Origin: an uncultured virus (IMG/VR IMGVR_UViG_3300025945_000001)
Lineage: Duplodnaviria > Heunggongvirae > Uroviricota > Caudoviricetes
Direction: 5' to 3' (one strand)
Length of the DNA stretch: 64,000 nucleotides
IMG/VR virus record: IMGVR_UViG_3300025945_000001
The translations under genes were made by a program, and so were the position numbers. How positions within the stretch are numbered: position 1 is the stretch's first letter; every line of letters begins with the position of its first letter. Under the pieces are notes generated by a model. The model saw only the letters and a list, made by a program, of their open reading frames with translations. It made no database searches and was not told where the DNA came from. This document shows positions 16,506-33,462 of the stretch, piece by piece.

Positions 16506-16510
16506 GTCAC

Positions 16511-16583: not shown

Positions 16584-16622
16584 CGCTTCCCCGAGAATCA
16601 CGTTACGGAGCGAACGCTAATC

Positions 16623-17579
16623 ATGCTCATCATCATCGAGGGACCGGACTGTAGCCGCAAGTCCACGCTCGCCGGACTCTTGAGGCAGGAGATCGACCGT
16701 CGGACTCGCGACGAGTACGTCACACTGCTTCACGCGGGCCCACCCACCCAGCACCCGCTGGACGAGTACGTAACGCCGCTGCTCACCTACCGACCGGAGA
16801 CCTCGCGGCACGTCATCTGCGACCGCTGGCACCTCGGCGAGCTCGTGTACCCGACCGTCTTTGGACGGTCATCGCAGTGCGACGACGCGGTGTTTAGGTA
16901 CGTGGAGCTGTTCCTCCAGTCGCGTGGCGCGTACCTCGTGGTGGTGACTCCCGAGGTGGACGAGCTGCGCGAGTGCCTCGAGCGCCGCGGCGACGAACCG
17001 GGCGAGCTGGACCGCGTCGAGTCCGTGCGTGACGGCTTCATCCGCGTCGCGACGCGCACCACGCTGCCGATGACGTGGCTCAAGGACGAGACGCTGACGG
17101 TCGACGTCACGTGGTCGATCATCAACGACGCGTCGGCGGCCGCGCTCGGCGCGCACTCGCTCAACAACTTCACGACGTACGTGGGCCCCCGCTACCCTCG
17201 CCGGCTGCTCGTCGGCGACGTGCGCAAGACGGGCACCGACCCCGACGACCTCCGACCGGCGTTCATGCCGTACCCCGCGACGTCCGGACACTACCTCATG
17301 CGCGCGCTGAGCGACGCGTCGGCGGATGCGGTCGGCGTCGTCAACGGCTGCGACGTCGACGACGCACTGCAGGTCTGGTTGACGCTCAACCAACCGCAGC
17401 TCGTTACCCTCGGACGCAACGCGCAGCGCGTCACCCGCGCGTGGCTCAACCACGTTCGTCGCGACGGTCAGTACCCGCTACCCATCGAGGTGCCGCACCC
17501 CCAGTGGCAGCGACGATTCGACCACCACAACCTAGCCAACTACCGAAGCCTAATGATGGGACTCCCACGTGGAACTTGA
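16623..17579 (+). CDS. dNMP (thymidylate-type) kinase fused to a UDG-superfamily domain
   Basis: N-terminal IIIEGPDCSRKST P-loop and ICDRWHLGELVY; C-terminal LLVGD...AFMP..TSGHYL...LVTLGRNA...VPHPQ follows the UDG-fold motif order. Confidence 0.8.
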   Translation: MLIIIEGPDCSRKSTLAGLLRQEIDRRTRDEYVTLLHAGPPTQHPLDEYVTPLLTYRPETSRHVICDRWHLGELVYPTVFGRSSQCDDAVFRYVELFLQSRGAYLVVVTPEVDELRECLERRGDEPGELDRVESVRDGFIRVATRTTLPMTWLKDETLTVDVTWSIINDASAAALGAHSLNNFTTYVGPRYPRRLLVGDVRKTGTDPDDLRPAFMPYPATSGHYLMRALSDASADAVGVVNGCDVDDALQVWLTLNQPQLVTLGRNAQRVTRAWLNHVRRDGQYPLPIEVPHPQWQRRFDHHNLANYRSLMMGLPRGT

Positions 17580-18453
17580 GCTGGCAAACCTACGCGAGGG
17601 CTACGTGGAGCTTCTCGACCTACTCCTACGCGAGGGCCAACTCGTGACGTCGCGGGAACTGCCGACGCGCGAGCTGACCGGGGTCCAGGTGACGTTCACC
17701 GACCCGCTAGCTCCCCTGCTGCCCGTCCACGTCGGCCGGCGCGTCAACCTACGCCTCGCCGCCATCGAGGCGCTGGCGTTGATCGGAGGTGCCAGCGCGG
17801 CGTCGCTGCTGCAACGCGCGACGCCGAGCTACGCGCGCGTCCTGGTGGATCCGCTCAACCCCGACTACGGCGCGTACGGACCGCGCGTCGCGACCCAGGT
17901 CGGCGAGTGCCTGCGGCTGCTCGCGACCGAGCCAACGACGCGTCGCGCCATCGTGTCCATCTGGCACGTCAACGACCTCACGCACGACGGCGACCGGCCG
18001 TGCACGATCTTCCTCCAGTTCCTCGTTCGCTCCGAGCGGCTCGGCGACGAACCACGCCTCGAGCTGTACGTCACCATGCGCAGTCAGGACGTGTGGCTCG
18101 GCGTGCCGTACGACGTCTTCATGTTCTCGCAGCTTCAGCACACGTTCGCGCGCGAGCTGAAGCTGCCCGCCGGTCGGTACGTTCACCGCGTCACGAGCCT
18201 GCACCTGTACGAGACGAACGTCGAGGCGGCCGAGGCCGTCGTCGCCGCGTTTCACGCCGACCCGACGCTGCCGCCCTGCGACGACCTACCGCTCGGCGTC
18301 GTCTCGGTGTCCGGCGACGAGAGTGGTTTCGACGTGGCGAGCTACCTACTCGACGACGCCGAGGAGACCGGTGACGAAGTCGTCACCACGGACGCCGAGC
18401 GCGCGGCCAACGCCTGGTACGCGGCGCGCCTCGCCGAGCTGAAGGAGTCGTAA
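17569..18453 (+). CDS. Thymidylate-synthase-family pyrimidine (hydroxy)methylase, probably dCMP-specific
   Basis: YGAYGPR, RRAIVSIW, catalytic PC, MRSQDVWLGVPYD and SLHLY motifs; Asp in place of the dUMP-selecting Asn. Confidence 0.85.
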   Translation: MELELANLREGYVELLDLLLREGQLVTSRELPTRELTGVQVTFTDPLAPLLPVHVGRRVNLRLAAIEALALIGGASAASLLQRATPSYARVLVDPLNPDYGAYGPRVATQVGECLRLLATEPTTRRAIVSIWHVNDLTHDGDRPCTIFLQFLVRSERLGDEPRLELYVTMRSQDVWLGVPYDVFMFSQLQHTFARELKLPAGRYVHRVTSLHLYETNVEAAEAVVAAFHADPTLPPCDDLPLGVVSVSGDESGFDVASYLLDDAEETGDEVVTTDAERAANAWYAARLAELKES

Positions 18454-18456
18454 CGC

Positions 18457-18957
18457 GTGATCGACGAGCGACCGTCCATGGATCACACGTTGATGGACAT
18501 GGCCGTGGTGATGGCGCGACGAGGAACCTGCTCGCGCGCCAGCGTCGGCGTGGTGGTGGCGCGCGAGGGCCGGGTGCTGACCACCGGCTACAACGGCGCA
18601 CCACGTGGACTCAAGCACTGCCTACATCCACCTGGTGAGACGTCCGCGTCGCGTGACGCCGAGGCGCCGACGTGCACGCTGGCGGTGCACGCCGAGGCCA
18701 ACGCCGTTGCGTTCGCCGCACGTCACGGTATCGCGCTCGCGGAGTCGGCGCTGTACACGACGCTGTCACCGTGCATACCCTGCGCGCAACTCATCGTCAA
18801 CGCGGGCATTCGCTCGGTGTACGTCGACGTGCCCTACCGCAACCTCAGCGGAGTTCGACTACTGAACGAGGCCGCCATCATCGTGTTCACACGCGACGCG
18901 TCGCTGCCCACGTTCGGCTGGTACCGGGACTACGGGCAGGACCGTACGACCACCTAG
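18457..18957 (+). CDS. dCMP deaminase
   Basis: TCSRASVG, TGYNGAP, HAEANA and SPCIPCA zinc-deaminase motifs. Confidence 0.92.
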   Translation: MIDERPSMDHTLMDMAVVMARRGTCSRASVGVVVAREGRVLTTGYNGAPRGLKHCLHPPGETSASRDAEAPTCTLAVHAEANAVAFAARHGIALAESALYTTLSPCIPCAQLIVNAGIRSVYVDVPYRNLSGVRLLNEAAIIVFTRDASLPTFGWYRDYGQDRTTT

Positions 18958-18995
18958 GTCCGTACGGAACGCACGCCGCCGGCTAGGCTAGCCGA

Positions 18996-19196
18996 GTGTC
19001 GGAAACCATTAAGATCAGCGGGGTGTGGCTTCGTCGCCTGCGAGACCGAGTGACCGTATCGGTCGAGGTTAACGGGAGTTGGCGCCTCGTCATCGACGAC
19101 GACCTCACACTCGAACGAATCTCGTGGGTGGTTGAGCCACTCGGCATCGAGACGTCACCACCGGACGCGGAAGCCAACCAGGTTCACGTTCGATGA
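18996..19196 (+). CDS. Hypothetical protein
   Basis: ISGVWLR...V.VEVNG.WRLVI; ATGA-coupled to the HNH gene. Confidence 0.5.
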   Translation: MSETIKISGVWLRRLRDRVTVSVEVNGSWRLVIDDDLTLERISWVVEPLGIETSPPDAEANQVHVR

Positions 19197-19627
19197 CGCT
19201 CGACCACGACGCGACCTTGGCGCAGCGTAAGAACGCGAAGCGTCTTCTTTATCGTGCACTTCGTCACGGTGAGTTGGTTCGTCCGCTTGACTGTGAACAC
19301 TGTGGGGGTCGATCACCGAATCGTGGTCTCGACGCACATCACGTTAACGGCTATGACGATGACAATGCTTGTAACGTTGAGTGGTTATGTCAAGCGTGTC
19401 ATAATAAGATCCACGGCGGTCCCAAGCATCGTGGTCTGAGACACTCAGCGGAAACTAAACGCATCATCGCTGAAAGCGTTAAGAAGGCTTACGCTGAAGG
19501 ACGTAAGGTCGCGTACGCACCTACCGGTGTAAATAATCCATTCTTTGGTCATACTCACACCGACGAAGTTAAACAAAAGATCAGTGAGGCTCGCCGACGG
19601 TGGCATCAGGTGCGTAATGGTTCTTGA
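19193..19627 (+). mobile_element. Free-standing HNH homing endonuclease with NUMOD3 repeats
   Basis: CEHCG...HH.NGYD...NVEWLCQACHNKIH; HSAETKRII and NPFFGHTHTDEVKQKISE NUMOD3-like motifs; visibly more AT-rich than flanks. Confidence 0.88.
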
Positions 19628-21401
19628 TAATGTGCAGATAACGCTCGTCGATTCCGTTGATGATGCTGGCGATTTCATGCGTTGGTTATCGACCAAAGAT
19701 ACCGTTGCATTTGATAGTGAAACCACAGGGCTCGACATCTGCACCGAGCGCGTCCGCCTCGTGCAATACGGCGACGAGACGCAGGCGTGGGTCATTCCGT
19801 TCGAGCGCTGGTCGGGCGTCGTCTACGACGCGGTGTCCAGGTTCGAGGGACACTACGTGATGCACAACATGCCCTACGACACCGGCATGTGCGAGAATCA
19901 CGGCATCAAGATCCCGAAGAACAAGGTGCGCGACACGCGCCTCGAAATGCACGTCCTCGAGTCCACCGGCTCCCTGGCGCTGAAGACGATCAGCAAGCGA
20001 CTCGTGGATCCGCGCGCGGACGCCGGGCAGCGCTCGCTCGACGAGGCTCTCAGCGGTCGCGGCGGCTGGACGTGGGCCACGGTGCCCTACGACTACGAGC
20101 CCTACTGGACCTACGCCGGCTTCGACACGATCCTCACCAAGCACGTCGACAACCAGCTCTGGCCCCGCGTGCGAGCCGACGCTCCGCGGTCGTACGAGCT
20201 GGAGGCCGCAGCCGTGTGGATCGCGCTTAACATGCAGCGCAAGGGCGTGCGCGTCGACCGCGAGTACACCGGGCGTCTCATGGAGTCGCTCGAGACGTAC
20301 GTCGTTGAGGTCGAGAAGTGGTGTCAGCAACACTACGGCGTCTACCCCGGCTCCAACAAGGACGTCGGCAAGATCCTCTACGACGAGGCCGGTCTCACCG
20401 AGCACACTCCCAGCGGCGCGCTCAAGCTCGACAAGGAGATCCTCGGCGACTGCCCGCATCCCCTCGCGCAGGCGGTGCTCGGTCGGCGCCAGGCCGTCAA
20501 GCTCGTCTCGACGTACCTCACGCACTTCCTCGAGCTGTCGACGCGCGACGGTCGGATTCACCCGTCGATCAACACCGTGGGTGGCACGGGTAAGAACCCA
20601 TTCGAGCCCGGGGGCTCCACCGGCGTCCGCACCGGTCGCATGTCGATGAACAACCCCAACCTCCAGAACGTCCCGGTGCGGACGAAGGAAGGTAAGAAGA
20701 TCCGGCGGTGCTTCGTGCCCGACGAGGGCAACGTGTGGATCAAGTGCGACGCCGACCAGATCGAGATGCGACTGCTCGCGCACCTAGCCAACGAACCCAA
20801 GATGATCGACGCGTTCGTCTCGGAGGGTGACTTCTTCGTCAACCTCGCGCGCGACCTGTTCGCGGAACCCAGTTTCCAGAAGTCCGACCCCCGTCGGCAG
20901 ATGGTGAAGAACGGCGGGTACGCTAAGATCTACGGCGCCGGCGTGGGGAAGTTCGCCAAGACCGCCGGCGTGCTAGTCGACGAGGCAGCCGCGTTCATGC
21001 GACGGTTTGACGCGCTGTTCGACGGGATTCCTCGCTGGGTTCGGGAGGTCGAGCGACTCGGCCACGAGCGACTGGAGGCCGAGGGTGTGGCGTACGTGCG
21101 GTCCCCGCTGACCGGTCGCCGACACGTCGCCGACGCCGGGCGCCTGTACACGCTGGTGAACTACCTCATCCAGGGCACGGCCGGCGAGCTGCTGAAGTTG
21201 AAGATGGTCGAGGCCGACCACGCGGGACTCGGCGATTACATGATACTGCCGGTGCACGACGAGGTGGACCTCGACGTGCCTCGCGACGACGTACCCGAGG
21301 TGCTCGCCACGCTGACCGACGTCATGAACGACGATCAACTGCTGCGGGTGCCGCTCACGTGGTCCGCGGAGACCGGTCCGAGCTGGGGCGAGTGCGAGTA
21401 G
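19617..21401 (+). CDS. polA: Family A DNA polymerase (3'-5' exonuclease plus polymerase)
   Basis: AFDSETTGL, HNMPYD, YAGFD exonuclease motifs; RTGRMS..NPNLQN, DADQIEMR (motif A), R...KNGGYAKIYGAG (motif B), VHDE (motif C). Confidence 0.95.
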   Translation: MVLDNVQITLVDSVDDAGDFMRWLSTKDTVAFDSETTGLDICTERVRLVQYGDETQAWVIPFERWSGVVYDAVSRFEGHYVMHNMPYDTGMCENHGIKIPKNKVRDTRLEMHVLESTGSLALKTISKRLVDPRADAGQRSLDEALSGRGGWTWATVPYDYEPYWTYAGFDTILTKHVDNQLWPRVRADAPRSYELEAAAVWIALNMQRKGVRVDREYTGRLMESLETYVVEVEKWCQQHYGVYPGSNKDVGKILYDEAGLTEHTPSGALKLDKEILGDCPHPLAQAVLGRRQAVKLVSTYLTHFLELSTRDGRIHPSINTVGGTGKNPFEPGGSTGVRTGRMSMNNPNLQNVPVRTKEGKKIRRCFVPDEGNVWIKCDADQIEMRLLAHLANEPKMIDAFVSEGDFFVNLARDLFAEPSFQKSDPRRQMVKNGGYAKIYGAGVGKFAKTAGVLVDEAAAFMRRFDALFDGIPRWVREVERLGHERLEAEGVAYVRSPLTGRRHVADAGRLYTLVNYLIQGTAGELLKLKMVEADHAGLGDYMILPVHDEVDLDVPRDDVPEVLATLTDVMNDDQLLRVPLTWSAETGPSWGECE

Positions 21402-21411
21402 GAGTGGTGGA

Positions 21412-21867
21412 GTGAAGAGACTGAGGTTCTACGTCAGTGGTCCGATCTCGGGCCTGCCGAACGGCAACGCGCACGCGTTCAGCGTCGCTAAGAGTCTCGT
21501 TCACTCGTGGGGTCACGAGGCGATCGTCCCTCACGAGATCGAGCCGCACCGGCACGAGGGTCCGTGCCCACCGTCGTACTCGAACCTCGTCACCGGCGGG
21601 GGTGGCCACACCAGCACGGCGTGCTTCATCCGCACCGACCTGAAGGTGCTCCTCGAGTGCGACGCAATCCTCATGATGAAGGGTTGGGAGCGCAGCGTTG
21701 GCGCGCGCCTCGAGTTCGACGTCGCGGCGATCTCGGGGTTGAAGATCTTCTACGAGGACGGGATGACGTTTCCCGTTCGCCCGACCGAGCGCGAGCCAAG
21801 TGGCCTAGAGCGGGGTCTGCGCGACGCCGAGTTCATGCGGCGTCGTCGAACTGAGGAGTCATTGTGA
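21412..21867 (+). CDS. DUF4406 / nucleoside deoxyribosyltransferase-like protein
   Basis: FYVSGPISGLP..N..AF...L.CDAILMM.GWERS.GARLE. Confidence 0.8.
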   Translation: MKRLRFYVSGPISGLPNGNAHAFSVAKSLVHSWGHEAIVPHEIEPHRHEGPCPPSYSNLVTGGGGHTSTACFIRTDLKVLLECDAILMMKGWERSVGARLEFDVAAISGLKIFYEDGMTFPVRPTEREPSGLERGLRDAEFMRRRRTEESL

Positions 21868-22039
21868 CGTTACCTCACGTGGGTCTCTATGGGCACGGCA
21901 TGCACGACTTTATCCTACGCGAGTGCGAGGTGGGTACGCGCGTCGCGTGCGCCGAGGACGACGAGGCGTGTGGCTTCGGTCCTCTGTTCGACGCTCGGTA
22001 CCTCGCGTGGGCTCGCGCGCAACCGGACCACGTTGAGCC

Positions 22040-22525
22040 ATGATCGATGAGTTCGAGCGCTACGTCATCGGCGTCGACGGCGGCCTCAGCACCGGCGTCG
22101 CGATCTTACGTGACGTCGAGCTGTTCGCGGTCTACCAGGGTCCGTGGGAGTCGGCGTTGGAGTGGCTCGACGACGTGGCGACTCGACTGCACACGCGGGG
22201 TGGCGACGTCGTCGTCGTGGCCGAGCGCTTCCGCAGCGGCGTCGGCTCGGTGCGCGCCTCGGCGCAGCCACACGCCGGGCGGGTGTACGCGGCCGCCGAG
22301 GACCTCGCGCGGCGACTCGGCGTTGAGTTCGCGGGGCAGGGTCCCGCCGAGGCGAAGCGGTTGGCGCCGAACCACGTTCTCCGCCGCGTGGGCCTGTACC
22401 TACGTGGTGACCAGGTCGGCTGCCCGGACGCGAACGACGTGAACGACGCGATCCGCCACGCTATCTTGTTCTTAGCACGACGTAGGGCTTCGGTCTTCAC
22501 TAGGCTGCTCAACTCCGAGCCGTAG
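22040..22525 (+). CDS. RuvC-like Holliday junction resolvase
   Basis: VIGVDGGLSTGVA...VVVAERF...Q.PAEAK...DVNDAIRH. Confidence 0.75.
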   Translation: MIDEFERYVIGVDGGLSTGVAILRDVELFAVYQGPWESALEWLDDVATRLHTRGGDVVVVAERFRSGVGSVRASAQPHAGRVYAAAEDLARRLGVEFAGQGPAEAKRLAPNHVLRRVGLYLRGDQVGCPDANDVNDAIRHAILFLARRRASVFTRLLNSEP

Positions 22526-22593
22526 GAAACGCCGCGGTTAGTTTGCAAACGCAACGCAGCCCAGTAACTCATCATTGATCGGTAGGACAGTAC

Positions 22594-24483
22594 GTGGCGC
22601 ACGCCGACTACGACGCGGAGCACGACCGGGTGGTGATTCACACGGCGTGGAACGAGAAGGACCTACTTCGAGCGGTGCCCGGCGCGCGCTGGGACGCCGC
22701 GACGCGCGTGTGGGTGGCGTCGGCGACCTGGGCCTCGATCGTGACGCTGCGCGGCGTGCTCGGCCAGCAGCTCACGCTCGGCGACCGACTGATCCAGTGG
22801 GCCTGGAAGCTGCGCCGCGACCGGATCGACCCGGCCGTCGAGCTGCGAAGTCAGCTCAACCACCCGAAGAGCGAACGGTTCTCGCCGCACCTCTACGACT
22901 TTCAGCGCGCCGGGGTGGCGTTCATGGACGTCGCCGACAGCGGGATCCTCGGCGACGAGATGGGCACCGGCAAGACCATCCAGATGCTCGACGTCCTCAA
23001 GGAGAACGGACTGCCGGCGCTGGTCATCTGCCCGAACTCGGTGAAGCACCACTGGCGGCAGCGCGCCGTGGACTTCCTACCGAAGGCGACGCCGTACGTG
23101 GTCGAGGGCACCGCCACGCAGCGACGCAAGATTCTCAAGTCGGCGCTCGGCGACGTGACCGCGCTCGTCATCATCAACATCGAGTCGGTCCGCCTGTTCA
23201 GTCGCCTAGCGCCGTACGGTAGCGTGCGTCTGAAGCGCTGCCGTGAGTGTGACCCGCTGCACGGCGACGAGAACCTCAAGGCGACGCGCTGCGACGTGCA
23301 CCGCAAGGAGCTCAACCACTTCGTGTTCAAGACCGTCGTCCTCGACGAGGCTCACCGCATTAAGGAACCCTCCGCGCAGCAGACCCGCGCGATCTGGCAC
23401 CTCGGCAGTCAACCCGGCGTCGCTCGTCGGTGGGCGTTGACCGGTACGCCGATCGCGAACCACCCGGGCGACCTGTGGTCGATCCTACACTTCGTCGCGC
23501 CGACCGAGTTTCCCACGCGCACGAAGTTCATCGACCGTTACTGCCTGATCTCGTGGAACGCGTTCGGTGGCACGGACATCGTCGGGGTTCGACCGGACAC
23601 GCGCGACGAGCTGTACCGGATGCTTGACCCGCGGTTCCGCCGGGTGCTGAAGGCGGTCGTGTTGCCGCAGCTACCGCCCAAGGTTCGCCAGACGCGCTAC
23701 GTCGACCTCACGACGACGCAGGAGCGCATGTATCGCGAGCTCGAGAGCTCACTGGTCGCGCGCACCGAGACCGGCGAGCTGCTGATCGCGCCGTCGAACC
23801 TCGCGGCGCAGACGCGCCTCATGCAGCTCACGGCCGCGTCGGTGACGATCGACCAGGTCGATCCCGACGACGTCGGGAGCTGGGAGGTAACGCTCAAGGA
23901 GCCCGCGCCGAAGCTGGACGCGCTGGAGGAGATCCTCGACGAGCTGGGCGTGTTCACGCCCCACTACGAGGGCACTCCCGTGCTGGTCGCCGCGGAGTAC
24001 CGCCAGCTCGTCGAGCTGGCCAGCGCGCGACTGCGCAAGCGCAACGTACCGCACGCGATCATCATGGGTGGCGTCAGCGAGTTTGACCGCAACCGCGCCA
24101 TCGAGGATCTCACGACGCGTCGCATTCACGTGCTTCTCTTCACCAGCGCCGCCGGCGGCACCGGTCTGGACATGTCCGCGTCGGACACGCTCATCAACCT
24201 GCAACGCTCGTGGTCGTTGATCAACGAGCGGCAGAAGGAGGATCGACCGCACCGCATCGGCGCGGAGGTCCACGAGACGTTGCGGATCATCGACATCACC
24301 ACCAAGGGTACCGTCGAGGAAACGCAGGTGACGCGACTTCAGGAGAAGCTGCTGCGGCTCGACGAGATCACCCGCGACCGGGCCGCGCTGCTGCGCGCCA
24401 ACGTGCACGCGGACACCACGACCTTCGACGCCGAGGAGCAGTTCATCCTACGCTCGTTCCCAGGTCTACCCAGTGAGGAGTAA
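22594..24483 (+). CDS. SNF2-family DNA helicase
   Basis: LYDFQ, GDEMGTGKT, VLDEAHRIK, ALTGTP, GGTGLD, QKEDRPHRIG. Confidence 0.93.
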   Translation: MAHADYDAEHDRVVIHTAWNEKDLLRAVPGARWDAATRVWVASATWASIVTLRGVLGQQLTLGDRLIQWAWKLRRDRIDPAVELRSQLNHPKSERFSPHLYDFQRAGVAFMDVADSGILGDEMGTGKTIQMLDVLKENGLPALVICPNSVKHHWRQRAVDFLPKATPYVVEGTATQRRKILKSALGDVTALVIINIESVRLFSRLAPYGSVRLKRCRECDPLHGDENLKATRCDVHRKELNHFVFKTVVLDEAHRIKEPSAQQTRAIWHLGSQPGVARRWALTGTPIANHPGDLWSILHFVAPTEFPTRTKFIDRYCLISWNAFGGTDIVGVRPDTRDELYRMLDPRFRRVLKAVVLPQLPPKVRQTRYVDLTTTQERMYRELESSLVARTETGELLIAPSNLAAQTRLMQLTAASVTIDQVDPDDVGSWEVTLKEPAPKLDALEEILDELGVFTPHYEGTPVLVAAEYRQLVELASARLRKRNVPHAIIMGGVSEFDRNRAIEDLTTRRIHVLLFTSAAGGTGLDMSASDTLINLQRSWSLINERQKEDRPHRIGAEVHETLRIIDITTKGTVEETQVTRLQEKLLRLDEITRDRAALLRANVHADTTTFDAEEQFILRSFPGLPSEE

Positions 24484-24484
24484 C

Positions 24485-25924: not shown

Positions 25925-26376
25925 CGACGAAGCCCAAGATGTTCAACGTCTTCCGCCGGATGAACAAGCGCCGTCGGACGCGCGCCCTGCTGGTCGCGCT
26001 GATCGACCGAGCCGAGTGGGGACCACCTCGTCCGATGGCTGCGCCCGTCACACTGGCCACGAAGATCGGCTCGTGCCCCGCGTGCAGCACGGTGATCGAC
26101 GTCGGCGACGAGATCCAGGCGGCCCTCGTCGGTCCACCCGGCGCGTCGTTCGAGGCGTGGATCCACGCGTCGTGTCCCAACTGGTGGGACGTGGTTCGCG
26201 ACATCATCGAGGACTACGACGAACTGATCGTGACGAAGGTGATCCCGGAGGGCCGCCGCGTCGCGAGCTGCGGCCACAACGTAGGAGGTGGCCCGGTGTA
26301 CCTGGTCCGCAACCCGGTCTCCCTGCTCGACGACAACCACAGTTACTGGCTCTGCGAAGGATGCGTGACACGATGA
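25921..26376 (+). CDS. Zinc-binding hypothetical protein
   Basis: CPAC...HASC...CGH...CEGC. Confidence 0.55.
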   Translation: MTTKPKMFNVFRRMNKRRRTRALLVALIDRAEWGPPRPMAAPVTLATKIGSCPACSTVIDVGDEIQAALVGPPGASFEAWIHASCPNWWDVVRDIIEDYDELIVTKVIPEGRRVASCGHNVGGGPVYLVRNPVSLLDDNHSYWLCEGCVTR

Positions 26377-27218
26377 CGAGTGACCTCGCGCCCCCGTCGC
26401 CGGTTCCCCTCTCGGCGACGTTCGAGACCAACCAGCGGCTCTCGATCCTGATTCACGCCGGCTCGAAGGTGGGCAAGTCGACGACGTCGGCGACCGCGCC
26501 GAAGCCGATCCTGGTGTTGGACGCGGAGGGCAGTTGGCGCTTCATTCCCCTGCGGCAGGTGCCGTGGGATCCCACCACCGGGCCGCCGCCCGCGTACGAC
26601 GGCTCGTGGGACGCCTGCGTGGTCACCATCAACCAGTGGGAGACGGTGAAGCAGGTCTACGACTGGGTCGCGCAGTACCAGACGCCGTTCACGTCGATCG
26701 TGATCGACTCGATCACCGAGATTCAGCGGCGGTGCAAGTCGAAGCTCGTCGGCGACGAGGCCATGAAGATCGCCGACTGGGGCATCCTGCTGGCGCGCAT
26801 GGACAGCGTCATTCGAGGCTTCCGCGACCTGGCGCTCAACCCCTACCTCTCGGTGCGCTGCGTCGTCTTCATCGCCGAGACGCGGCAGTCGCAGGCGGGC
26901 AAGTGGGTGCCGTACATGCAGGGGCAGATCTCGGTGTCGCTGCCGTACTGGGTCGACATCTGCGGGTACCTCTACCCCGACTGGGAGGTCGACGGCAACG
27001 GCCAACCGACCCGTGAGATCCGCCGACTGTGGATCACACCGAGCCAGCAGTTCGAGGCCGGCGAGCGCGTCCAGGGACGCCTCGGCGGTGCGCTGACCCT
27101 CACGAAGGCACCGGTCAACACCGTCGGCACCGACATTGAGGACTGGATGAAGATCGTGTTTGGAGTCCCCGCGACGCCTGTTACGGTCGCCGATACCACG
27201 ATGGAAGGAACGAAGTAA
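26373..27218 (+). CDS. AAA_24/Sak4-like ATPase (recombinase)
   Basis: HAGSKVGKST Walker A, LVLDAEG, IVIDSITE; adjacent to the exonuclease and SSB genes. Confidence 0.85.
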   Translation: MTSDLAPPSPVPLSATFETNQRLSILIHAGSKVGKSTTSATAPKPILVLDAEGSWRFIPLRQVPWDPTTGPPPAYDGSWDACVVTINQWETVKQVYDWVAQYQTPFTSIVIDSITEIQRRCKSKLVGDEAMKIADWGILLARMDSVIRGFRDLALNPYLSVRCVVFIAETRQSQAGKWVPYMQGQISVSLPYWVDICGYLYPDWEVDGNGQPTREIRRLWITPSQQFEAGERVQGRLGGALTLTKAPVNTVGTDIEDWMKIVFGVPATPVTVADTTMEGTK

Positions 27219-28097
27219 ATGACCACAGTTGACTTCGGCAAGGCGCTGCGCGACGCGAAGACCGCGTCCTACGAGGCGCTGCCGATCGGCGACTACGACG
27301 TGGAGGTGGCCGTCTCGGACTCCATCCGCGCGTCCACCGGCAAGCCCATGATCAAGGTGCAGTTGAAGGTGCTTACCGGCCCCTACCAGGGGAGGCAGGT
27401 GTTCAACAACTTCGTGTTCTCGGCCGAGAGCCCGCAGGCGATGGCGATGTTCTTCCGACACATGCGGGCGTTCGGCCTGACCGAGGAGTTCTTCGCCTCG
27501 CTGGGTTCGAACGGCAGCATGGACGCCGTGGCCACCGCGCTACTCAACCGACGGGCGAAGATCACCCTGGGCCAGCGCGAGTGGCAGGGTGAGACGCGCA
27601 ACGAGGTCAAGGGCGTCAAGCCGTACACGGGCGCGCCGGGTGCGCCGGTCGCCGGTCCGGTCGGTCCGCAGCCGACCCCGCCGCCGATGATGGCCCCGCC
27701 CGTCGCGCCTCCGGCGTCGCCGCAGCCGGCACCGATGCCGGCTCCCGTGGCTGCGCAGCCAGCCGCGCCCGCGCAGCCGGCGAGTCCGCCGCAGCCGAGC
27801 CCGGTGGCGCAGCCGCAGTACGTCGAGCCGCAGCAGCCGATCGCGCCCCCGCAGCCGGCCTACGAGGTGCCGGCGTACGTGCCTCCGCCGCCGGCCACGG
27901 CCGACGCCGGTCCGACGCCGCCGGCGGTCGCCGGTCCGGTGATCGAGGCCGCTCCGTTCGACGGCACGACGGGGCCGCTCGCGGTCCCTACCGACGCGGC
28001 GCCGTCGGTCGGCGCCGCCGAGTCGTCGTCGCCCGCGCCAACCCAGCCTACCTATGAGCCTCCGATTCCCCCGGGTGCTCCCGAGCTGCCCATCTGA
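27219..28097 (+). CDS. DUF669 ssDNA-binding protein with long Pro/Ala tail
   Basis: YEALP.GDYDV.V...STGKPMI...GPYQGR.VF...EWQGE.RNEVK. Confidence 0.85.
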   Translation: MTTVDFGKALRDAKTASYEALPIGDYDVEVAVSDSIRASTGKPMIKVQLKVLTGPYQGRQVFNNFVFSAESPQAMAMFFRHMRAFGLTEEFFASLGSNGSMDAVATALLNRRAKITLGQREWQGETRNEVKGVKPYTGAPGAPVAGPVGPQPTPPPMMAPPVAPPASPQPAPMPAPVAAQPAAPAQPASPPQPSPVAQPQYVEPQQPIAPPQPAYEVPAYVPPPPATADAGPTPPAVAGPVIEAAPFDGTTGPLAVPTDAAPSVGAAESSSPAPTQPTYEPPIPPGAPELPI

Positions 28098-28107
28098 TCA
28101 ACTCACT

Positions 28108-28138
28108 CGTGGTGGACCTCCTCGTGAGGTCCACCACG
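28108..28138 (+). terminator. Perfect 13-bp hairpin between the SSB and glycosyltransferase genes
   Basis: CGTGGTGGACCTC-ctcgt-GAGGTCCACCACG; poor U-tract, so may be a processing/attenuation site. Confidence 0.55.
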
Positions 28139-28157
28139 CGTCTAAGAAGGACAACCC

Positions 28158-29528
28158 GTGCGGATAGGCTACTGCAAGCTAGGACGTTCGATGCCCCTCG
28201 CGCAGCGGCGCTGGGGCGTCGTCGGCGGCGACGACGAGCCGCCGCTGCTGCTGCGGACTCTCGCCGAGCGTCACCCCGAGCACGAGTTCGTGATCGTCGG
28301 TAAGAACTCCGGCGACGACGTCACCGACGCGGGTCTGCCGCCGAACGTCACGAATCCCTGGCGCACCCTGGCCGGGGAGGTGCGGCGCGCGGTCGGTGGG
28401 CGCGACCAGCCGATCCGGATCACCGGCGACGACCTGAAGCACGTTCTTCAGGTGTACGACGACCTCGTCATTCCGCTGTTTCGCGACCTCGATGGGTTGA
28501 TCGTCTGGGCCGGCCAGCACGGCACCAGCAACTCGCCACTGCCACGCATCGGCACGACCTACGAGGAGGACCTGTGGACGCAGCCTCAGAAGTCGTTCAC
28601 GCTGTACGTCTCGTACGTCGTGCGCGGCATCAACGCGTTCCGCGAGCGCGATCCCCTCAAGTACGAGGAGATCTGGCTCGTTCCGGACCCGCGTAACTAC
28701 CCGAAGCCTCGCGACCTCAAGTGGCCGCAGCGGCTGCCCATCCTCGCGCAGTACGACTTCACCAAGAACGAGAAGTACGAGCGGTACCACGACTGGCGCA
28801 CGCCCGAGGAGTGCGGCTTCGACGCGCGGGTCGACGAGTCCGGTCACGTGTGGCTCGCCACGCAACGGTACGTGTACTCGGGTCTGGAGCTGTGCGGCGT
28901 CATGCCGAGCTACATCGGCGCCGAGCAGCCTCCGGTCTACGACTGGGGTAACCGCAGGCACTTCGGTCTGTTCATCAACGAGGCGCGCGCGTACGTCGCC
29001 AAGAACCGACTCGACGCGGTGCGCGACTACGTCCTGCCACTCGAACCGGCGTTCATGCACGGCAAGTGGTCCAAGGAGTCACACGCGGTGCTCCACGCGG
29101 CCGGCTACGACGTGCAACCGGCGCCTCACGAGCACTACTACCCGCTGCTGCGCTCGGTGCGCACCACGTTCACGACGCCCAGCTCGGGTTCCGGCTGGGC
29201 GACCACCAAGCCCTGGCAGGCGTTCGCGCACGGCACCGTGTGCTTCTTTCACCCCGAGTACGACACGCAGGGTCACATCATTCCGACGCTGGCGCAGGCG
29301 AACAGCGACGCGTACTGGGCGGCCGCGGGACCGAACGAGAATCTGCGGCAGCTCGCCCGGTGGCTGCGCGTGCGCGACCCCGGCGAGCTTCAGAAGCGCG
29401 TGGATCACCTCAGCGACAACTACGAGGCGTGGTGTTGGCTCGTTAAGCAGCAGCGCGCGCTGTACGACCGCGCGGTCGTCGACCCCCTCCACGTCACCAT
29501 GATCGAACGAAGGCTAGGACTCGCGTGA
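28158..29528 (+). CDS. GT-B-fold glycosyltransferase, probable DNA-modifying
   Basis: N-terminal GYCKLGRS...GGDDE; C-terminal HGKW...YY.LL...RTTFTTP..GSGWATTKPWQAFA.GTVCFFHP.YD.Q resembles phage DNA glycosyltransferases; replication-operon context. Confidence 0.7.
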   Translation: MRIGYCKLGRSMPLAQRRWGVVGGDDEPPLLLRTLAERHPEHEFVIVGKNSGDDVTDAGLPPNVTNPWRTLAGEVRRAVGGRDQPIRITGDDLKHVLQVYDDLVIPLFRDLDGLIVWAGQHGTSNSPLPRIGTTYEEDLWTQPQKSFTLYVSYVVRGINAFRERDPLKYEEIWLVPDPRNYPKPRDLKWPQRLPILAQYDFTKNEKYERYHDWRTPEECGFDARVDESGHVWLATQRYVYSGLELCGVMPSYIGAEQPPVYDWGNRRHFGLFINEARAYVAKNRLDAVRDYVLPLEPAFMHGKWSKESHAVLHAAGYDVQPAPHEHYYPLLRSVRTTFTTPSSGSGWATTKPWQAFAHGTVCFFHPEYDTQGHIIPTLAQANSDAYWAAAGPNENLRQLARWLRVRDPGELQKRVDHLSDNYEAWCWLVKQQRALYDRAVVDPLHVTMIERRLGLA

Positions 29529-30607
29529 CCAACATCGCACTTATTACCACGACCATCAACGTACCGATCGTCCTGCGGGAGTACGTGAATCACGTGCCCT
29601 CGGGTTGCCACCTCGACGTGGTCGTGGCCGGTGACAGTCGCACTCCGCCGGCGGCGCGCGACCTCGTCGAGGACCTCGGTGGTACGTACCTCGGGATCGA
29701 CGGCGACGAGGTCGAACGCTGGCGCACACACCGCGCGGTGGGCCTGCACACCATCCAGCGGCGCAACCTCGCGCTGCTACACGCACTGACCCTCGGCCCT
29801 GACGTCGTTGTCACCGTCGACGACGACAACGAACCTCAGGATCACACGACCTACTTCGTTGACGTCCTAGGTCGACTGGCGAGTCCAGTGACGCAGGTGG
29901 TTCGCTCGTCCACGGGTTGGTTCAACCCCGGCTACCTGTTGACACCACCCGTGGTGCACCGAGGCTTTCCCCTCGACCAGCGTCACACGTCGCCGAACTA
30001 CGCGACATACGCAGCCAGCACCACGAACCACGGTGGGCGGTCACCACGCGTGGGCGTGGTGGCGGGACTGACTCTTGGCGATCCCGACGTCGACGCGATC
30101 GAGCGGATCGTGAAGCAGCCGCACGTCGAGGAGCTCCGCGACGAGGTGACGCTCGACGTCGGCACCTGGGCACCGTTCAACACGCAGAACACCGCGTACG
30201 TCTGGGAGCTCGCGCCGCTGATGCAGTGCCTGTACGCGGTGGGTCGCTACGACGACATCTGGATGAGCTACGTCGCGCGCTCGATCATGGATGACCTAGG
30301 GTGGTACGTCACCTACGGTCGACCACTGACGGTGTCCGTGCGCAACCAGCACGACCTGGTCACCGATCTCGAGCGGGAAGTGTACGGTTACCGTAACACA
30401 CCAATGCTCATTAAACGGCTCCGCGACGTCAGCGCCCTGTTGTCTGATAAGAACGTGACGCCGCTCGATCACCTCGCCGACGCGTACGCGCAGTGTGAAA
30501 CGTACCTCAAGTACCTCACACATCGTGCCAACACCGCGTGGCTGCGCGACGCGCGCGAGGCGATCGACGAGGGTGAACTTCGACGGAAGGAACGCAACGA
30601 TGACTAG
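29525..30607 (+). CDS. RGP(GT75)/STELLO(DUF288)-like GT-A protein; possible nucleotide-sugar mutase
   Basis: ITTTIN, VVAGD..TP, RRN.A.L.A, TVDDDN, RGFPL, L..GDPDVDAI, PFNTQNT, GRYDDIW, RN.HDL..DL..EV. Confidence 0.8.
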   Translation: MTNIALITTTINVPIVLREYVNHVPSGCHLDVVVAGDSRTPPAARDLVEDLGGTYLGIDGDEVERWRTHRAVGLHTIQRRNLALLHALTLGPDVVVTVDDDNEPQDHTTYFVDVLGRLASPVTQVVRSSTGWFNPGYLLTPPVVHRGFPLDQRHTSPNYATYAASTTNHGGRSPRVGVVAGLTLGDPDVDAIERIVKQPHVEELRDEVTLDVGTWAPFNTQNTAYVWELAPLMQCLYAVGRYDDIWMSYVARSIMDDLGWYVTYGRPLTVSVRNQHDLVTDLEREVYGYRNTPMLIKRLRDVSALLSDKNVTPLDHLADAYAQCETYLKYLTHRANTAWLRDAREAIDEGELRRKERNDD

Positions 30608-31616
30608 GAACGTACTGGTAACCGGCGCGGGTGGCTTCATTGGCGGGCACCTCGTAGGCCGATTGATCGACGAGGGTTGCGACGTGACGGCGGCCGACGT
30701 CAAGCCCCGCAGCGAGTGGCACCAGCGGCACGTCGGGGCACTGACGTTCGACCACCTCAACTGCGCGAACCTCGACCAGCTCGGCATCGTGCACTCGGCG
30801 AGCGGCCCCTTCGACGAGGTCTACAACCTCGCCGCGGACATGGGTGGCATCGGCTTCATCGAGACGAATAAGGTCGCGTGTATGCTGTCGTCGCTCATCA
30901 CGACGAACGTGCTCGTCGCCGCCGCGGAGTACGAGTGGGGGCGGGTCTTCTACTCATCCTCGGCCTGCGTGTACCCCGCGCATCTCCAGCGTGAGTCGAA
31001 CGTCGCCGCCCTACGCGAGCAGGACGCGTACCCAGCCGACCCCGAGGACGGCTACGGGTGGGAGAAGTTGTTCGGCGAGCGGATGCACCGACACTTCACC
31101 GAGGACCTCGGCGTGGAGACGCGCGTCGCGCGGTACCACAACGTGTACGGCCCGCACGGTGTGTGGACCGGTGGCCGCGAGAAGGCACCCGCCGCACTGA
31201 GCCGCAAGGTCGCCGAGGCGGTGCTGTCTGGTGACCTGACGATCGACGTCTGGGGTGACGGCGAGCAGACGCGGTCGTTCACCCACGTCGACGACGCGGT
31301 GACCGGTACGCTCAAGATCATGCGTTCGGACGTGCGTGAACCACTGAACGTCGGGTCGAACGAGCTGGTTACGATCAACCAGGTGATCAGCCTCCTGGAG
31401 AAGTTCGCCGGCGTCACACTTCAGCGGGCGTACCAACCCGACGCGCCGAAGGGTGTGCGTGGACGTAACTCTGACAACACGCTGATCCGCAAGTACCTCG
31501 ACTGGGAGCCCACTGTGACCCTCGCGGACGGCCTACCGAGCAACTACGAGTGGGTCTACGGCGAGGTGCTGCGCGCCGGTGGCTGGCCCACGAGTGAGGA
31601 GTCCACCCATGAGTGA
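30600..31616 (+). CDS. GDP-mannose 3,5-epimerase-like extended SDR
   Basis: TGAGGFIG, YNLAADMGGIGFI, YSSSACVYP, DAYPADPEDGYGWEK, GGREKAPAA, WGDGEQTRSF, GVRGRNSDN. Confidence 0.9.
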   Translation: MTRNVLVTGAGGFIGGHLVGRLIDEGCDVTAADVKPRSEWHQRHVGALTFDHLNCANLDQLGIVHSASGPFDEVYNLAADMGGIGFIETNKVACMLSSLITTNVLVAAAEYEWGRVFYSSSACVYPAHLQRESNVAALREQDAYPADPEDGYGWEKLFGERMHRHFTEDLGVETRVARYHNVYGPHGVWTGGREKAPAALSRKVAEAVLSGDLTIDVWGDGEQTRSFTHVDDAVTGTLKIMRSDVREPLNVGSNELVTINQVISLLEKFAGVTLQRAYQPDAPKGVRGRNSDNTLIRKYLDWEPTVTLADGLPSNYEWVYGEVLRAGGWPTSEESTHE

Positions 31617-32091
31617 CTGGCGCTGGTTGGAGTCAACCCGTGAGCTTCAGGAGGAGGCCTACGGCAAGACGTTCCACGGTCACGTTGATCCCGATGAGTT
31701 CGCGGACGCGATCGTCATGAATCACTCCGCGCTGGTCGTCGAGCTGGGTGAGTTCATGAACGAGGTGGGTTGGAAGGACTGGTCCACGCCACGAGGCTGG
31801 GTTAACCGGGATGCCGCCGTGGGTGAGCTCGTCGACGTCGCGCACTTCCTCGCGAACCTCCTGGTTCGACTCAACGTCACCGACGACGAGTGGGAGCAGC
31901 GGTACCAGGCTAAGCAGGACGTCAACCGCAACCGGCAACGGTCGGGCTACGACACCCGCGTTCACAAGTGTCCGAGTTGCGGTCGGGCGTACGACGATCC
32001 CGGCGTCGAGTGCGAACCCTTGACCGAGTCGTCGTCTGCGGCGAAGGCGTGGTGCGCGCGCGACGACGTCTACATCATGGAGACGACGTGA
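31609..32091 (+). CDS. MazG/dimeric dUTPase-like dNTP pyrophosphatase with C-terminal Zn ribbon
   Basis: ELGEFMNEVGWKDW...ELVDVAHF...Y..KQ.VN..RQ..GY; CPSC. Confidence 0.85.
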   Translation: MSDWRWLESTRELQEEAYGKTFHGHVDPDEFADAIVMNHSALVVELGEFMNEVGWKDWSTPRGWVNRDAAVGELVDVAHFLANLLVRLNVTDDEWEQRYQAKQDVNRNRQRSGYDTRVHKCPSCGRAYDDPGVECEPLTESSSAAKAWCARDDVYIMETT

Positions 32092-32274
32092 ACGCGGTCT
32101 GCCTCTGCGACGGTCGCTACGCCGGCTGCGATCACGAGCTTCCCTGTCACAACGAGCCGGGTACGCCGTGGGGGCCGCACTTCTGCGCCGAGTGTGACCC
32201 TCGGCGACTCGATCACATCTCGAGGAACCTCGAGGAGATGCAACGCTCGTTCACGCGGCAGCCTGAGGAGTAAC

Positions 32275-33462
32275 GTGTACCGGTTCGTGGCCTGCCAGAG
32301 CTTCGCAGGCGGGTTCGACCTCGGCGTCGTGCAGGCCGGCTTCGAGCTCGTCCACAAGGTCGAGCAGACCGGTGGCTTTGGTATGGCAAACTGCCTCGCC
32401 AACCGGCACCTGCTAGGCGATGACTGGACGGCGCAGGCCGGCGACTACCAGGAGTGGTACGCGCCTCCGGACGTCGACTTCATTGCAGCCAACCCGCCCT
32501 GTTCGGGATTTAGTGCCATGACCGACAGGCGTCACCGTGGGATCGACGCGCGGGTCAACGCCTGCATGTGGGTGCTCGGCGAGTACGCCGCGCGCATCAA
32601 GCCCACCATCATGGTGATGGAGTCGGTGCGCGCGGCGTACTCGACCGGACGCCCACTCATGACCGACCTACGCGAGAACCTCGAGCGTCGCAGCGGTCTC
32701 AAGTACGACCTGTACCACGTCTTCCAGGACGCGCTCGAGCTAGGTGGCGCCGCGCGACGCCCGAGGTACTTCTGGGTGGCGTCGCGCGTGCCGTTCGGCG
32801 TCGAGTACCCGAGCGTCCGAACGCCGGTGCTGCGTGAGATCTGGGACGACCTGCGGGGGCACGCGGTGACGTGGCAGCGCCAGCCGTACCGCCGACCGCC
32901 GACGTGGTGGTCCGAGCGCGAGCGCTGCCGCGCCGAGGCGACGTTCGACGGCCACGCGACGCACGGCGGCATCCCGAACGAGCGCGCCATGGATCTACTG
33001 GAGCTGGCCAACCAGGACGGCGGGTGGCCCGCCGGCTGGCCGATCGGTCGCATGGCGAAGCACTGCTACGAGACGTTCGGCTATCTCCCACCGTCGTGGG
33101 ACGGCATGAAGGAGCGCCTCATCGCCAAGGACTTCCACATGGGGTTCACGACGTTGATCCGCTGGGATCCAGAGCGCCCGGCGCGCGTCATCACCGGGGC
33201 CGCGCTGGACATGGTGCTGCACCCCTACGAGTCGCGCACGATCACTCACCGCGAGGCGGCTCGCGTGATGGGCTTCCCCGACGACTGGCGGATCCTACCG
33301 CTGCGCGGGGTCAGCAACCTCCGCGCCACGTGGGGCAAGGGCATCACCGTCCAGTGTGGTAAGTGGATCGGCGAGCAGGTGAAGAACGCGCTGGACGGGA
33401 ACCCCGGCTCGGTCACCGGCGTGCCGGACGGCGACCGTGAGTGGTTCATCAGGCAACGCTAG
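32275..33462 (+). CDS. Divergent C5-cytosine DNA methyltransferase
   Basis: SFAGGFDLG (motif I), NPPCSGFS (IV), MESV (VI variant), RRPRYFWVA (VIII), THREAARVMGFPDDW (IX), WGKGI (X variant). Confidence 0.85.
   Translation: MYRFVACQSFAGGFDLGVVQAGFELVHKVEQTGGFGMANCLANRHLLGDDWTAQAGDYQEWYAPPDVDFIAANPPCSGFSAMTDRRHRGIDARVNACMWVLGEYAARIKPTIMVMESVRAAYSTGRPLMTDLRENLERRSGLKYDLYHVFQDALELGGAARRPRYFWVASRVPFGVEYPSVRTPVLREIWDDLRGHAVTWQRQPYRRPPTWWSERERCRAEATFDGHATHGGIPNERAMDLLELANQDGGWPAGWPIGRMAKHCYETFGYLPPSWDGMKERLIAKDFHMGFTTLIRWDPERPARVITGAALDMVLHPYESRTITHREAARVMGFPDDWRILPLRGVSNLRATWGKGITVQCGKWIGEQVKNALDGNPGSVTGVPDGDREWFIRQR

Follow-up and report, generated by a model that had tools for sequence, protein, structure and literature searches.

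Does the replication operon of an uncultured phage encode a pathway that replaces cytosine with a sugar-bearing base? Sugar-decorated 5-hydroxymethylcytosine (5hmC) is a known way to shield phage DNA from host nucleases. We analysed a 64-kb stretch of DNA from an uncultured virus (IMG/VR IMGVR_UViG_3300025945_000001), referred to here as the window, in which genes resembling those of the T4 cytosine modification system lie between positions 16623 and 33462. A preliminary description of this DNA had proposed that the phage makes a 5-substituted deoxycytidine (dC) and glycosylates it. The sequence evidence supports this proposal, and we consider it probable that the genes form a pre-replicative pathway of T4 type, in which 5-hydroxymethyl-dC (5hm-dC) would replace cytosine and the DNA would then be glycosylated. 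Pfam, PHROG, structure models and sequence searches recovered every modification gene named in that description, all co-oriented on the + strand (Table 1). The 16.8-kb span that it had assigned to the pathway does contain them, but shares its space with ordinary genes of replication and recombination, outside any modification pathway. By Pfam and PHROG, these encode an HNH endonuclease, a DUF4406 protein, a RuvC-like protein, an SNF2 helicase, a PD-(D/E)XK nuclease, an AAA_24/Sak4-like protein and a DUF669 single-stranded DNA-binding protein (SSB).

The window is 64 kb of a contig whose longest copy measures 97.8 kb. Its G+C content is 62-72%, and its genes run on the + strand until ~50.3 kb and on the - strand beyond, the latter part carrying the tape-measure, major tail, head-tail adaptor and endolysin genes. 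This gene layout, a whiB gene and a 97.8-kb contig on record with an identical copy of the thymidylate synthase (TS) homologue described below show that the source is a large siphovirus-like phage contig, and indicate that the host was probably an actinobacterium. A DNA-level search of 50,697 GenBank phage records returned short patches only, covering at most 5% of the query.

The TS homologue was said to read GVPYD where ThyA has G(L/V)PFN, an Asn-to-Asp change that would confer T4-type specificity for deoxycytidine monophosphate (dCMP). The motif is real, as positions 17986-18114 translate to DGDRPCT...MRSQDVWLGVPYD. To place the protein, we aligned the products of E. coli thyA, T4 gene 42 and RB69 gene 48 with the TS homologue and its relatives. 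At ThyA positions 143, 169 and 177, E. coli ThyA carries L, D and N, T4 gp42 carries D, D and D, and RB69 gp48 carries E, N and D. The window protein has the T4 pattern (D142, D174 and D182), and all three residues are invariant in 18/18 aligned relatives, as is the catalytic Cys145, which aligns with ThyA C146. Identity to ThyA in this alignment is 24% for gp42, 19% for gp48 and 27% for the window protein. Since the alignment reproduces the published RB69 signature we regard it as valid, and it therefore places the TS homologue with T4 gp42. According to the parts of a recent study used here, N177D (E. coli ThyA numbering) leads to a preference for dCMP (Lee et al., NAR 2026, PMC13326640). 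Position 143 is bulky and hydrophobic in enzymes with methyl products and acidic in those with hydroxymethyl or hydroxy products, the acidic residue being tied to water access, whereas flavin-dependent 5-hydroxy-dCMP synthases, among them those of RB69, DLP3 and RL38J1, are recognised by D169N (PMC13326640).

Database comparisons agree with this placement. The best PDB sequence match of the TS homologue is the CMP hydroxymethylase MilA (4e-16), marginally ahead of thymidylate synthases, and hhalign relates it to T4 gp42 at 97%. Against the NCBIfam thymidylate synthase equivalogs it scores at most 75 bits, with cut-offs of 108-576 (for example, 75 against 327). The features of a gp42-type enzyme, namely the TS fold with its catalytic Cys, Asp at 177 and an acidic residue at 143, are all present. 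Asp at both 143 and 177 and the low equivalog scores set it apart from ThyA, and the Asn that takes the place of ThyA D169 in 5-hydroxy-dCMP synthases is absent, D174 being kept in all 18 relatives. By every applicable sequence test the TS homologue is assigned to the gp42 type, and it fits neither ThyA nor the synthases of the 5-hydroxycytosine (5hoC) kind.

The last distinction bears on an alternative that follows the same logic with another base. The TS-fold enzyme could make 5-hydroxy-dCMP, or another C5 derivative, and the sugar could be ether-linked to 5hoC. There is precedent, as TS homologues assumed to be hydroxymethylases proved to be flavin-dependent 5-hydroxy-dCMP synthases, in gene clusters that likewise contain a thymidylate kinase (TMK)/YorR-like kinase and a glycosyltransferase (GT) of the GT-B fold (PMC13326640), and the window protein is distant from every characterised member. 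The diagnostic D169N is nevertheless missing from the window protein and all 18 aligned relatives, RB69 gp48 showing the Asn in the same alignment, and we regard this alternative as unlikely.

The residues bear equally on the simplest alternative, that these genes supply thymidylate and exclude uracil. The deaminase and a dUTPase would provide dUMP, the TS homologue would convert it to dTMP and the kinase to dTDP, a uracil-DNA glycosylase (UDG) fused to the kinase would remove uracil, and the sugar genes would be unrelated; in a variant, dCMP would be methylated and then deaminated to dTMP. Annotations of Actinomycetia phage DSL-LC01 and Gordonia phage Forza (both discussed below) name their homologues thymidylate kinase, thymidylate synthase and deoxycytidylate deaminase. 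PHROG names the window pyrophosphatase a dUTPase, the fold of the kinase is closest to YorR and thymidylate kinases, and UDGs fused to replication enzymes for uracil repair are known in phages (PMC13697223, seen in part). Yet Asp is invariant at both ThyA 177 and 143, N177D being a published dCMP switch (cited in PMC13326640), and the equivalog scores fall short of the cut-offs. We also examined five related contigs taken whole (CheckV 98-100% complete, terminal repeats in three), in which genes were counted by tblastn. Each of these complete relatives has a single PF00303 gene, and two of the five carry ThyX alongside it, as would be expected if this enzyme had a product other than dTMP; ThyX was not found within the 64-kb window. 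Taken with these points, thymidylate supply is a very improbable function for the locus.

The gene directly upstream encodes the fused kinase. A PHROG 'thymidylate kinase' match covers residues 1-172 of the protein, and an AlphaFold (AF2) model built on 15 relatives reached a pLDDT (predicted local distance difference test) of 88.5. In VIA structural searches, residues 1-180 matched the B. subtilis YorR-like structure 2axp (YorR/BSU20280) at Z 18.3 and thymidylate kinases at Z 13-14, and residues 177/184-314 matched the family-5 UDG 2d3y (Z 10.4), UdgX 6ail (Z 10.0) and the family-4 UDG 1l9g (Z 10.0), with 122 residues aligned in each case. A structure search of the ESM Atlas likewise related the C-terminal part to a type-4 UDG at a TM-score of 0.65, its neighbours there being small viral proteins, 18-36% of them with PF03167. 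On these models, residues 1-~175 form a TMK/YorR-like deoxynucleoside monophosphate (dNMP) kinase and residues ~180-314 a UDG-fold domain. The kinase half has a P-loop kinase fold with a DR(Y/H)-type motif, K13, D67 and R68 are invariant, and PF02223 matches 8/15 family members, the window copy not among them. It is homologous to RB69 gp45 (hhalign 88.8%), a 'nucleotide kinase' whose gene adjoins those of the TS homologue and the first glycosyltransferase. Equivalent kinases of DLP3 and RL38J1 are listed in Table 1 of PMC13326640.

Sequence searches gave no comparable signal for the UDG half. Pfam returned nothing for the window fusion protein even at E 10 and matched the UDG half in 0/15 family members, and the PDB, searched with a profile of the UDG-half alignment, yielded nothing but spurious matches to designed TIM barrels and a cathepsin. 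By eye, the half contains GDVR, PAF, a conserved Asn and an HPQ that is invariant across the family, which we take to resemble canonical UDG motifs A (GEAPG-type) and B (HPS-type). The domain may excise uracil, bind a modified base or merely tether the kinase.

The preliminary description had pointed out that T4-like phages pair the hydroxymethylase with a dCTPase. The MazG-like pyrophosphatase is a candidate for this role, as it shares a Pfam family with T4 gp56. It scores 46.1 bits against PF08761 (cut-off 22.9), where gp56 scores 25.4 bits, and BLASTP aligns the two proteins over 42 residues at 40% identity (1e-7). Its PDB matches, dimeric dUTPase and DCTPP1, are both weak (E ~0.08). The likely start is ATG 31609, and we predict from sequence that the gene encodes a dCTPase/dUTPase. 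The Cys-rich tail of the protein (residues ~128-160; CPSC ... C.P ... WC) gave weak zinc-finger-like PDB matches, and a similar tail occurs in one complete relative (G001).

Is the modified base then glycosylated? The GT-B protein had no match in Pfam (to E 10) or PHROG. Its AF2 model (pLDDT 91.3) shows the two Rossmann domains of a GT-B fold, and the comparison with T4 glucosyltransferases that had been suggested bears out a structural resemblance to the DNA beta-glucosyltransferase (BGT). In the VIA search T4 BGT (1c3j) came first, with Z 22.9, a root-mean-square deviation of 3.5, 310/333 BGT residues aligned and 13% identity. The next chain after BGT scored Z 19.6, T4 alpha-glucosyltransferase Z 16.3 and a glycosyltransferase of phage HY126 Z 15.6. 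Likewise, T4 BGT entries took ranks 1-5 and 7 among the 11 PDB matches listed by Foldseek (best E 3.9e-8), and the second match in BFVD, a set of predicted viral structures, is named 'DNA beta-glucosyltransferase'. A tblastn search of the 50,697 phage records returned a single distant match at 24.6% identity. The GT-B protein is thus BGT-like in the fold of its model and not in its sequence. Its gene lies between the SSB and pyrophosphatase genes inside the replication operon, apart from the structural genes, and we predict that the enzyme attaches the first sugar to 5hmC in DNA.

An alternative is that 5hm-dC, or 5-methyl-dC, remains unglycosylated in the DNA, and that the GT-B, the RGP/STELLO-like protein and the GDP-mannose 3,5-epimerase (GME) encoded beside it act on virion proteins or the host envelope. 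A second glycosylation cluster indeed lies beside the lysis and tail genes (45551-51740), and it is mostly kept in four of the five complete relatives, with its - strand GT-B in all five. Enzymes similar to its small GT2 transferases occur in cluster-J-type mycobacteriophages and in Gordonia phages, with matches in 23 Mycobacterium and 18 Gordonia phage records. We take this cluster to be a separate system, most likely one that glycosylates virion proteins or the envelope, and it may supply a uronic-acid donor. Furthermore, some further complete relatives, outside these five, have the TS and kinase-UDG genes and lack this GT-B family, and GDP-L-galactose is not a known sugar donor for DNA. On the other hand, the GT-B is structurally closest to a DNA enzyme, which aligns over nearly its whole length, and the gene keeps its place between SSB and pyrophosphatase genes in the replication operon in 5/5 complete relatives and in 25/41 of the methylase-anchored loci described below. 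We therefore think it improbable that these enzymes act on other targets only.

Two further sugar genes follow the GT-B gene. The RGP/STELLO-like protein scores 16.1 and 16.2 bits in Pfam, below the gathering cut-offs of 23.8 and 27.8. Its nearest ESM Atlas clusters are RGP/STELLO families (0.98, 231/256 features), many of them viral, so that a distant kinship to RGP/STELLO is likely. We predict an accessory role in glycosyl transfer; a function as sugar-nucleotide mutase is less likely. The adjoining protein, previously called 'GME-like' and placed among the SDR epimerases by the family scans, is by sequence a clear GDP-mannose 3,5-epimerase homologue. With phmmer it matches 8sg0 at E 3.6e-84 (286 bits) and Arabidopsis GME 2c59 at 4.7e-81 (276 bits), the next family reaching 99 bits, and the catalytic stretches SSAC, YGxEK and GREKAPAA are conserved in its alignment. 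Its probable start is ATG 30600, with GGAAGGA ahead of it. Such an enzyme would make GDP-L-galactose or GDP-L-gulose from GDP-mannose.

We then asked how far the arrangement is conserved. The TS homologue belongs to a large uncultured family, with 256 proteins matched at an E-value of 1e-10 or below and many of them encoded on contigs of 90-115 kb; the GT-B family comprises 720 proteins at the threshold used. Core genes keep their order in all five complete relatives, showing that the gene order is not due to chance, and in two of them the genes for GT-B, pyrophosphatase and methylase-like enzyme directly adjoin one another. Of 81 loci, L001 from GenBank and 80 from IMG/VR, which were collected with patterns of the TS family and are biased to it, 34 have the kinase gene immediately 5' of the TS gene; ~19 of these match nearly the whole fusion and the others its kinase half only. 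A second set was anchored on the methylase-like gene and consists of 41 IMG/VR loci in which at least 80% of that gene is covered; these are related, some of them near-duplicates, and not independent. Within 10 kb of the anchor we found the pyrophosphatase in 31/41, the GT-B in 25/41, the RGP-like gene in 13/41 and the epimerase in 11/41, and the pyrophosphatase gene lies directly upstream of the anchor wherever the flank is complete. The RGP-like gene is accompanied by the GT-B in 12/13 loci, the thirteenth being cut by a contig end. This nested distribution, with RGP-like genes only alongside GT-B genes, suggests that a second sugar is added onto the first. The list of pathway genes first proposed mixes core parts (kinase-UDG, TS, GT-B, pyrophosphatase and methylase-like enzyme) with the RGP-like protein and the GME, an accessory pair present in one of the five complete relatives (Table 1). 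Taken together, kinase(-UDG), TS, pyrophosphatase and methylase-like enzyme form the core, and the sugar part varies. An apparent fusion of the pyrophosphatase and methylase genes in relative G001 proved to be an artefact, with a stop codon inside the BLAST match.

Folds, family memberships, diagnostic residues and conserved synteny are what we observe, and from them we infer every substrate, product and acceptor of the following pathway. The gp56-family pyrophosphatase would convert dCTP, and probably also dUTP, to the monophosphate, feeding the dCMP pool. The TS-fold enzyme would use dCMP, methylene-tetrahydrofolate and water to make 5-hydroxymethyl-dCMP. The kinase half of the fusion would raise this to the diphosphate and the nucleoside diphosphate kinase of the host to the triphosphate, and the phage PolA, which would have to accept the modified nucleotide, would insert 5hm-dC instead of dC. 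The BGT-like GT-B would then add a sugar to the 5-CH2OH group in DNA. As accessory steps, the GME would turn host GDP-mannose into GDP-L-galactose or GDP-L-gulose, and the RGP/STELLO-like protein would probably transfer this GDP-L-hexose as a second or alternative sugar. The dCMP deaminase, like T4 cd, would divert dCMP to dUMP for dTMP synthesis. Similar associations are on record: TS domains are found together with NTP-pyrophosphatase and dCMP-deaminase domains on contigs that an experiment had selected for modified cytosine (parts of PMC8670742), and GT-plus-epimerase pairs acting on 5hmC as well as GT-B enzymes associated with ThyS have been described (parts of 10.1101/2023.12.21.572611). 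TET/JBP-type dioxygenases, which would point to a post-replicative route, were absent from the selected open reading frames (ORFs) upstream and at 33952-51740.

The roles of the UDG-fold domain and of the methylase-like enzyme are unexplained by this T4-type pathway. Compared with M.HaeIII, the latter reads PPCS for PPCQ in motif IV, ESV for ENV in motif VI and ARRPR for QDRKR in motif VIII, and the catalytic Pro-Cys, the motif VI Glu and the motif VIII arginines are kept in it and in four full-length relatives. The cofactor motifs differ, with QSFAGG for FSGAGG in motif I and GKG for GNA in motif X. The canonical S-adenosylmethionine motifs I (FxGxGG) and X (GN) are missing from the window protein and its relatives, which read (Q/L/G)(S/T/G)FAGG and GKG. 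In a more speculative scheme, part of the chemistry would take place on the DNA itself, through two enzymes without precedent: the UDG fold would flip a 5-substituted pyrimidine to the fused kinase, the methylase-fold enzyme would exchange or extend the 5-substituent, or both, and L-galactose or L-gulose would come from a GDP donor. The fusion would then be a base-flipping DNA hydroxymethyl-pyrimidine kinase, by analogy with the 5-hydroxymethyldeoxyuridine DNA kinases of thymidine hypermodification, and the methylase-fold enzyme, with its rebuilt cofactor motifs, would attack C6 of 5hmC rather than methylate. To our knowledge, neither an L-hexose as DNA sugar nor a GDP-sugar as donor for DNA is known. 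We hold this scheme to be unlikely.

Several observations weigh against the T4-type pathway. A kinase, a TS, a dCMP deaminase, a dUTPase-family enzyme and a UDG are also an ordinary set for dTTP supply and uracil exclusion, and only the active-site residues, the co-occurrence with ThyX and the BGT-like enzyme argue against that function. The link between diagnostic residues and products is correlative, comes mostly from Straboviridae enzymes and is read here at low identity to ThyA (19-27%). RB69 itself, long assumed to use a hydroxymethylase, makes 5hoC and not 5hmC (PMC13326640). The kinase is TMK-like, not gp1-like, and the Walker A motif of the window copy is SRKST where most relatives have GKST. 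At the sequence level the GT-B family is only weakly related to T4 BGT (hhalign probability 21%, E 0.001, over 71 C-terminal columns). Five further relatives, three complete and two partial, carry TS and kinase genes and lack this GT-B family; in them the kinase-UDG match covers nearly the full profile in the three complete genomes and the kinase half only in the two partial ones. The second sugar cluster suggests that the phage has other glycosylation targets, and the conserved C5-methylase-fold enzyme suggests that some unmodified C persists or that other chemistry takes place.

Table 1. Positions of the genes discussed, with the matches that identify them and their occurrence in five complete relatives.
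Feature	Position	Strand	Basis	Complete relatives
Ro60/TROVE-vWA homologue	13155-14867		PF25045, 190 bits; PF05731, 138 bits	2/5
DUF7873 protein, full length	15147-15881		274 bits	4/5
Kinase-UDG fusion (318 aa)	16623-17579	+	PHROG 761; AF2 model	5/5
TS-fold enzyme, predicted dCMP hydroxymethylase (5hm-dCMP synthase)	17569-18453	+	PF00303, 91 bits	5/5
dCMP deaminase	18457-18957	+	PF00383, 76 bits; PHROG 174, 1.5e-43	4/5
HNH/NUMOD3 endonuclease, overlaps 5' end of PolA ORF	19193-19627			1/5 (G002)
Family A DNA polymerase (PolA) with 3'-5' exonuclease	19545-21401	+	PF00476, 243 bits; PF01612	5/5
DUF4406/nucleoside 2-deoxyribosyltransferase-like protein	21412-21867	+	PF14359, 63 bits; PHROG 355	2/5
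GT-B resembling T4 DNA beta-glucosyltransferase	28158-29528	+	AF2 model fold	5/5
RGP/STELLO-like (GT75-like) protein, DDD motif	29525-30607	+	ESM Atlas clusters; Pfam 16 bits, below cut-off	1/5, with adjoining epimerase
GDP-mannose 3,5-epimerase homologue	30600-31616 (ORF 30495-31616)	+	phmmer 8sg0, E 3.6e-84	1/5, with RGP-like gene
All-alpha NTP pyrophosphatase (dUTPase_2/MazG-like), Cys-rich tail	31579-32091	+	PF08761, 46.1 bits	5/5
C5-cytosine-methyltransferase-fold enzyme	32194-33462	+	PF00145, 73 bits	5/5 (G003 matches residues 103-422 only)
whiB	38616-39002
GT2-type transferases, two or three	45551-46168, 46057-46848, 46845-47504	+
SDR (short-chain dehydrogenase/reductase) epimerase/dehydratase	47501-48502	+
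UDP-glucose dehydrogenase	49010-50287	+
GT-B of second cluster, beside endolysin	50514-51740	-		5/5

Other genes accompany the modification genes. The HNH/NUMOD3 gene, of the homing-endonuclease kind, is inserted between the dCMP deaminase and PolA genes. The DUF4406 gene after PolA is a possible nucleotide-pool accessory. We take its fold to be shared with dNMP N-hydrolases and with MilB, which works alongside the CMP hydroxymethylase MilA, and the protein could remove undesired nucleotides, 5hm-dUMP for example. The Ro60/TROVE-vWA homologue and the DUF7873 protein are encoded just before the modification genes.

Related gene sets occur in other phages. L001 (MW202657.1), a 56-kb siphovirus from spring water, carries the same gene combination in one block (11001-21043) on an unrelated backbone. 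Its block comprises an NTP-pyrophosphatase-like gene, a 'pyrimidine hmase', unnamed genes of 415 and 365 aa, a dCMP deaminase, a DNA polymerase and a HaeIII-like C5 methylase, and the 'pyrimidine hmase' is 38% identical to the window TS homologue, with D at position 143. The cultured Gordonia phage Forza (L169, NC_070763.1) encodes, at 3366-4999 on the - strand, a 'thymidylate synthase' with D/D/D at 143/169/177 adjoining a 262-aa 'thymidylate kinase'. Judged by these residues, the Forza protein may be a hidden dCMP-modifying enzyme.

If the T4-type pathway is true, cytosine replacement and glycosylation in the style of T4 would extend beyond Straboviridae and a few Gram-negative phages, and would be the norm in a large lineage of uncultured actinobacterial siphophages, of roughly 80-110 kb each. 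It would also bring new families of DNA glycosyltransferases, a possible GDP-L-hexose donor for DNA, the kinase-UDG fusion and the methylase-fold enzyme. Labels such as 'thymidylate synthase' and 'thymidylate kinase' in actinophage genomes could then mask base-modification genes, and Forza, as a cultured phage, is open to direct testing. Such modified DNA resists many restriction enzymes, as reported for RB69 and DLP3 (PMC13326640).

How does the locus compare with known systems? The T-even glucosyl-5-hydroxymethylcytosine system (gp56, gp42, gp1, cd and BGT) holds the same set of activities with one gene for each, and the window resembles it in the gp42 residue pattern, the Pfam family of gp56, a GT-B fold like that of BGT and a dCMP deaminase. 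Unlike T4, the window phage is siphovirus-like and high in G+C, has a family A polymerase instead of gp43 and carries whiB. Its kinase is TMK/YorR-like with a fused UDG-fold domain and not gp1-like, its GT-B is 13% identical to BGT and matches nothing in Pfam at E 10, and it has in addition the GME and RGP/STELLO-like pair and the conserved C5-methylase-fold gene.

The clusters for arabinosylation or glycosylation of 5hoC in RB69, DLP3 and RL38J1 share with the window N177D, an acidic residue at 143, a TMK/YorR-like kinase encoded next to the TS homologue, a GT-B and phage-encoded sugar-nucleotide enzymes (PMC13326640). They differ in their marker D169N, where the window keeps D169, and in the sugar route, which runs via arabinose-5-phosphate or UDP-galactofuranose in the RB69-type clusters (PMC13326640) and via a GDP-mannose epimerase in the window, whose kinase in addition bears the UDG-fold domain. 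The 'subclass II' clusters of a GT plus an epimerase acting on 5hmC resemble the window in that a glycosyltransferase adjoins a sugar epimerase, on which its activity depends in those clusters (10.1101/2023.12.21.572611). Their 5hmC arises post-replicatively, through a methylase and a TET-like dioxygenase, whereas no dioxygenase is found among the scanned window ORFs. The same source reports GT-A folds as common among DNA glycosyltransferases, and the terms 'STELLO' and 'reversibly glycosylated' do not occur in the portion of its text that was searched.

A similar arrangement is that of Actinomycetia phage DSL-LC01 (OQ999401.1), assembled from a lake metagenome, whose 332-aa 'thymidylate kinase' is 32% identical over 97% of the window fusion. 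The gene order is alike, running through kinase, TS, dCMP deaminase, PolA, resolvase, helicase, nuclease, RecA-like protein, glycosyltransferase, sugar-nucleotide enzyme, MazG-like protein and methyltransferases, whereas the sugar genes are another glycosyltransferase and a UDP-galactopyranose mutase. The authors interpreted the mutase as a host cell-wall gene (PMC10611076, seen in part); the searched passages of that paper contain neither 'thymidylate' nor a link of these genes to DNA base modification. Our literature search, of limited coverage, found no description of such a module in actinophages. The window is set apart from every described system that we found by its kinase family with the fused UDG domain, its pair of GME and GT75-like protein, and its methylase-like enzyme.

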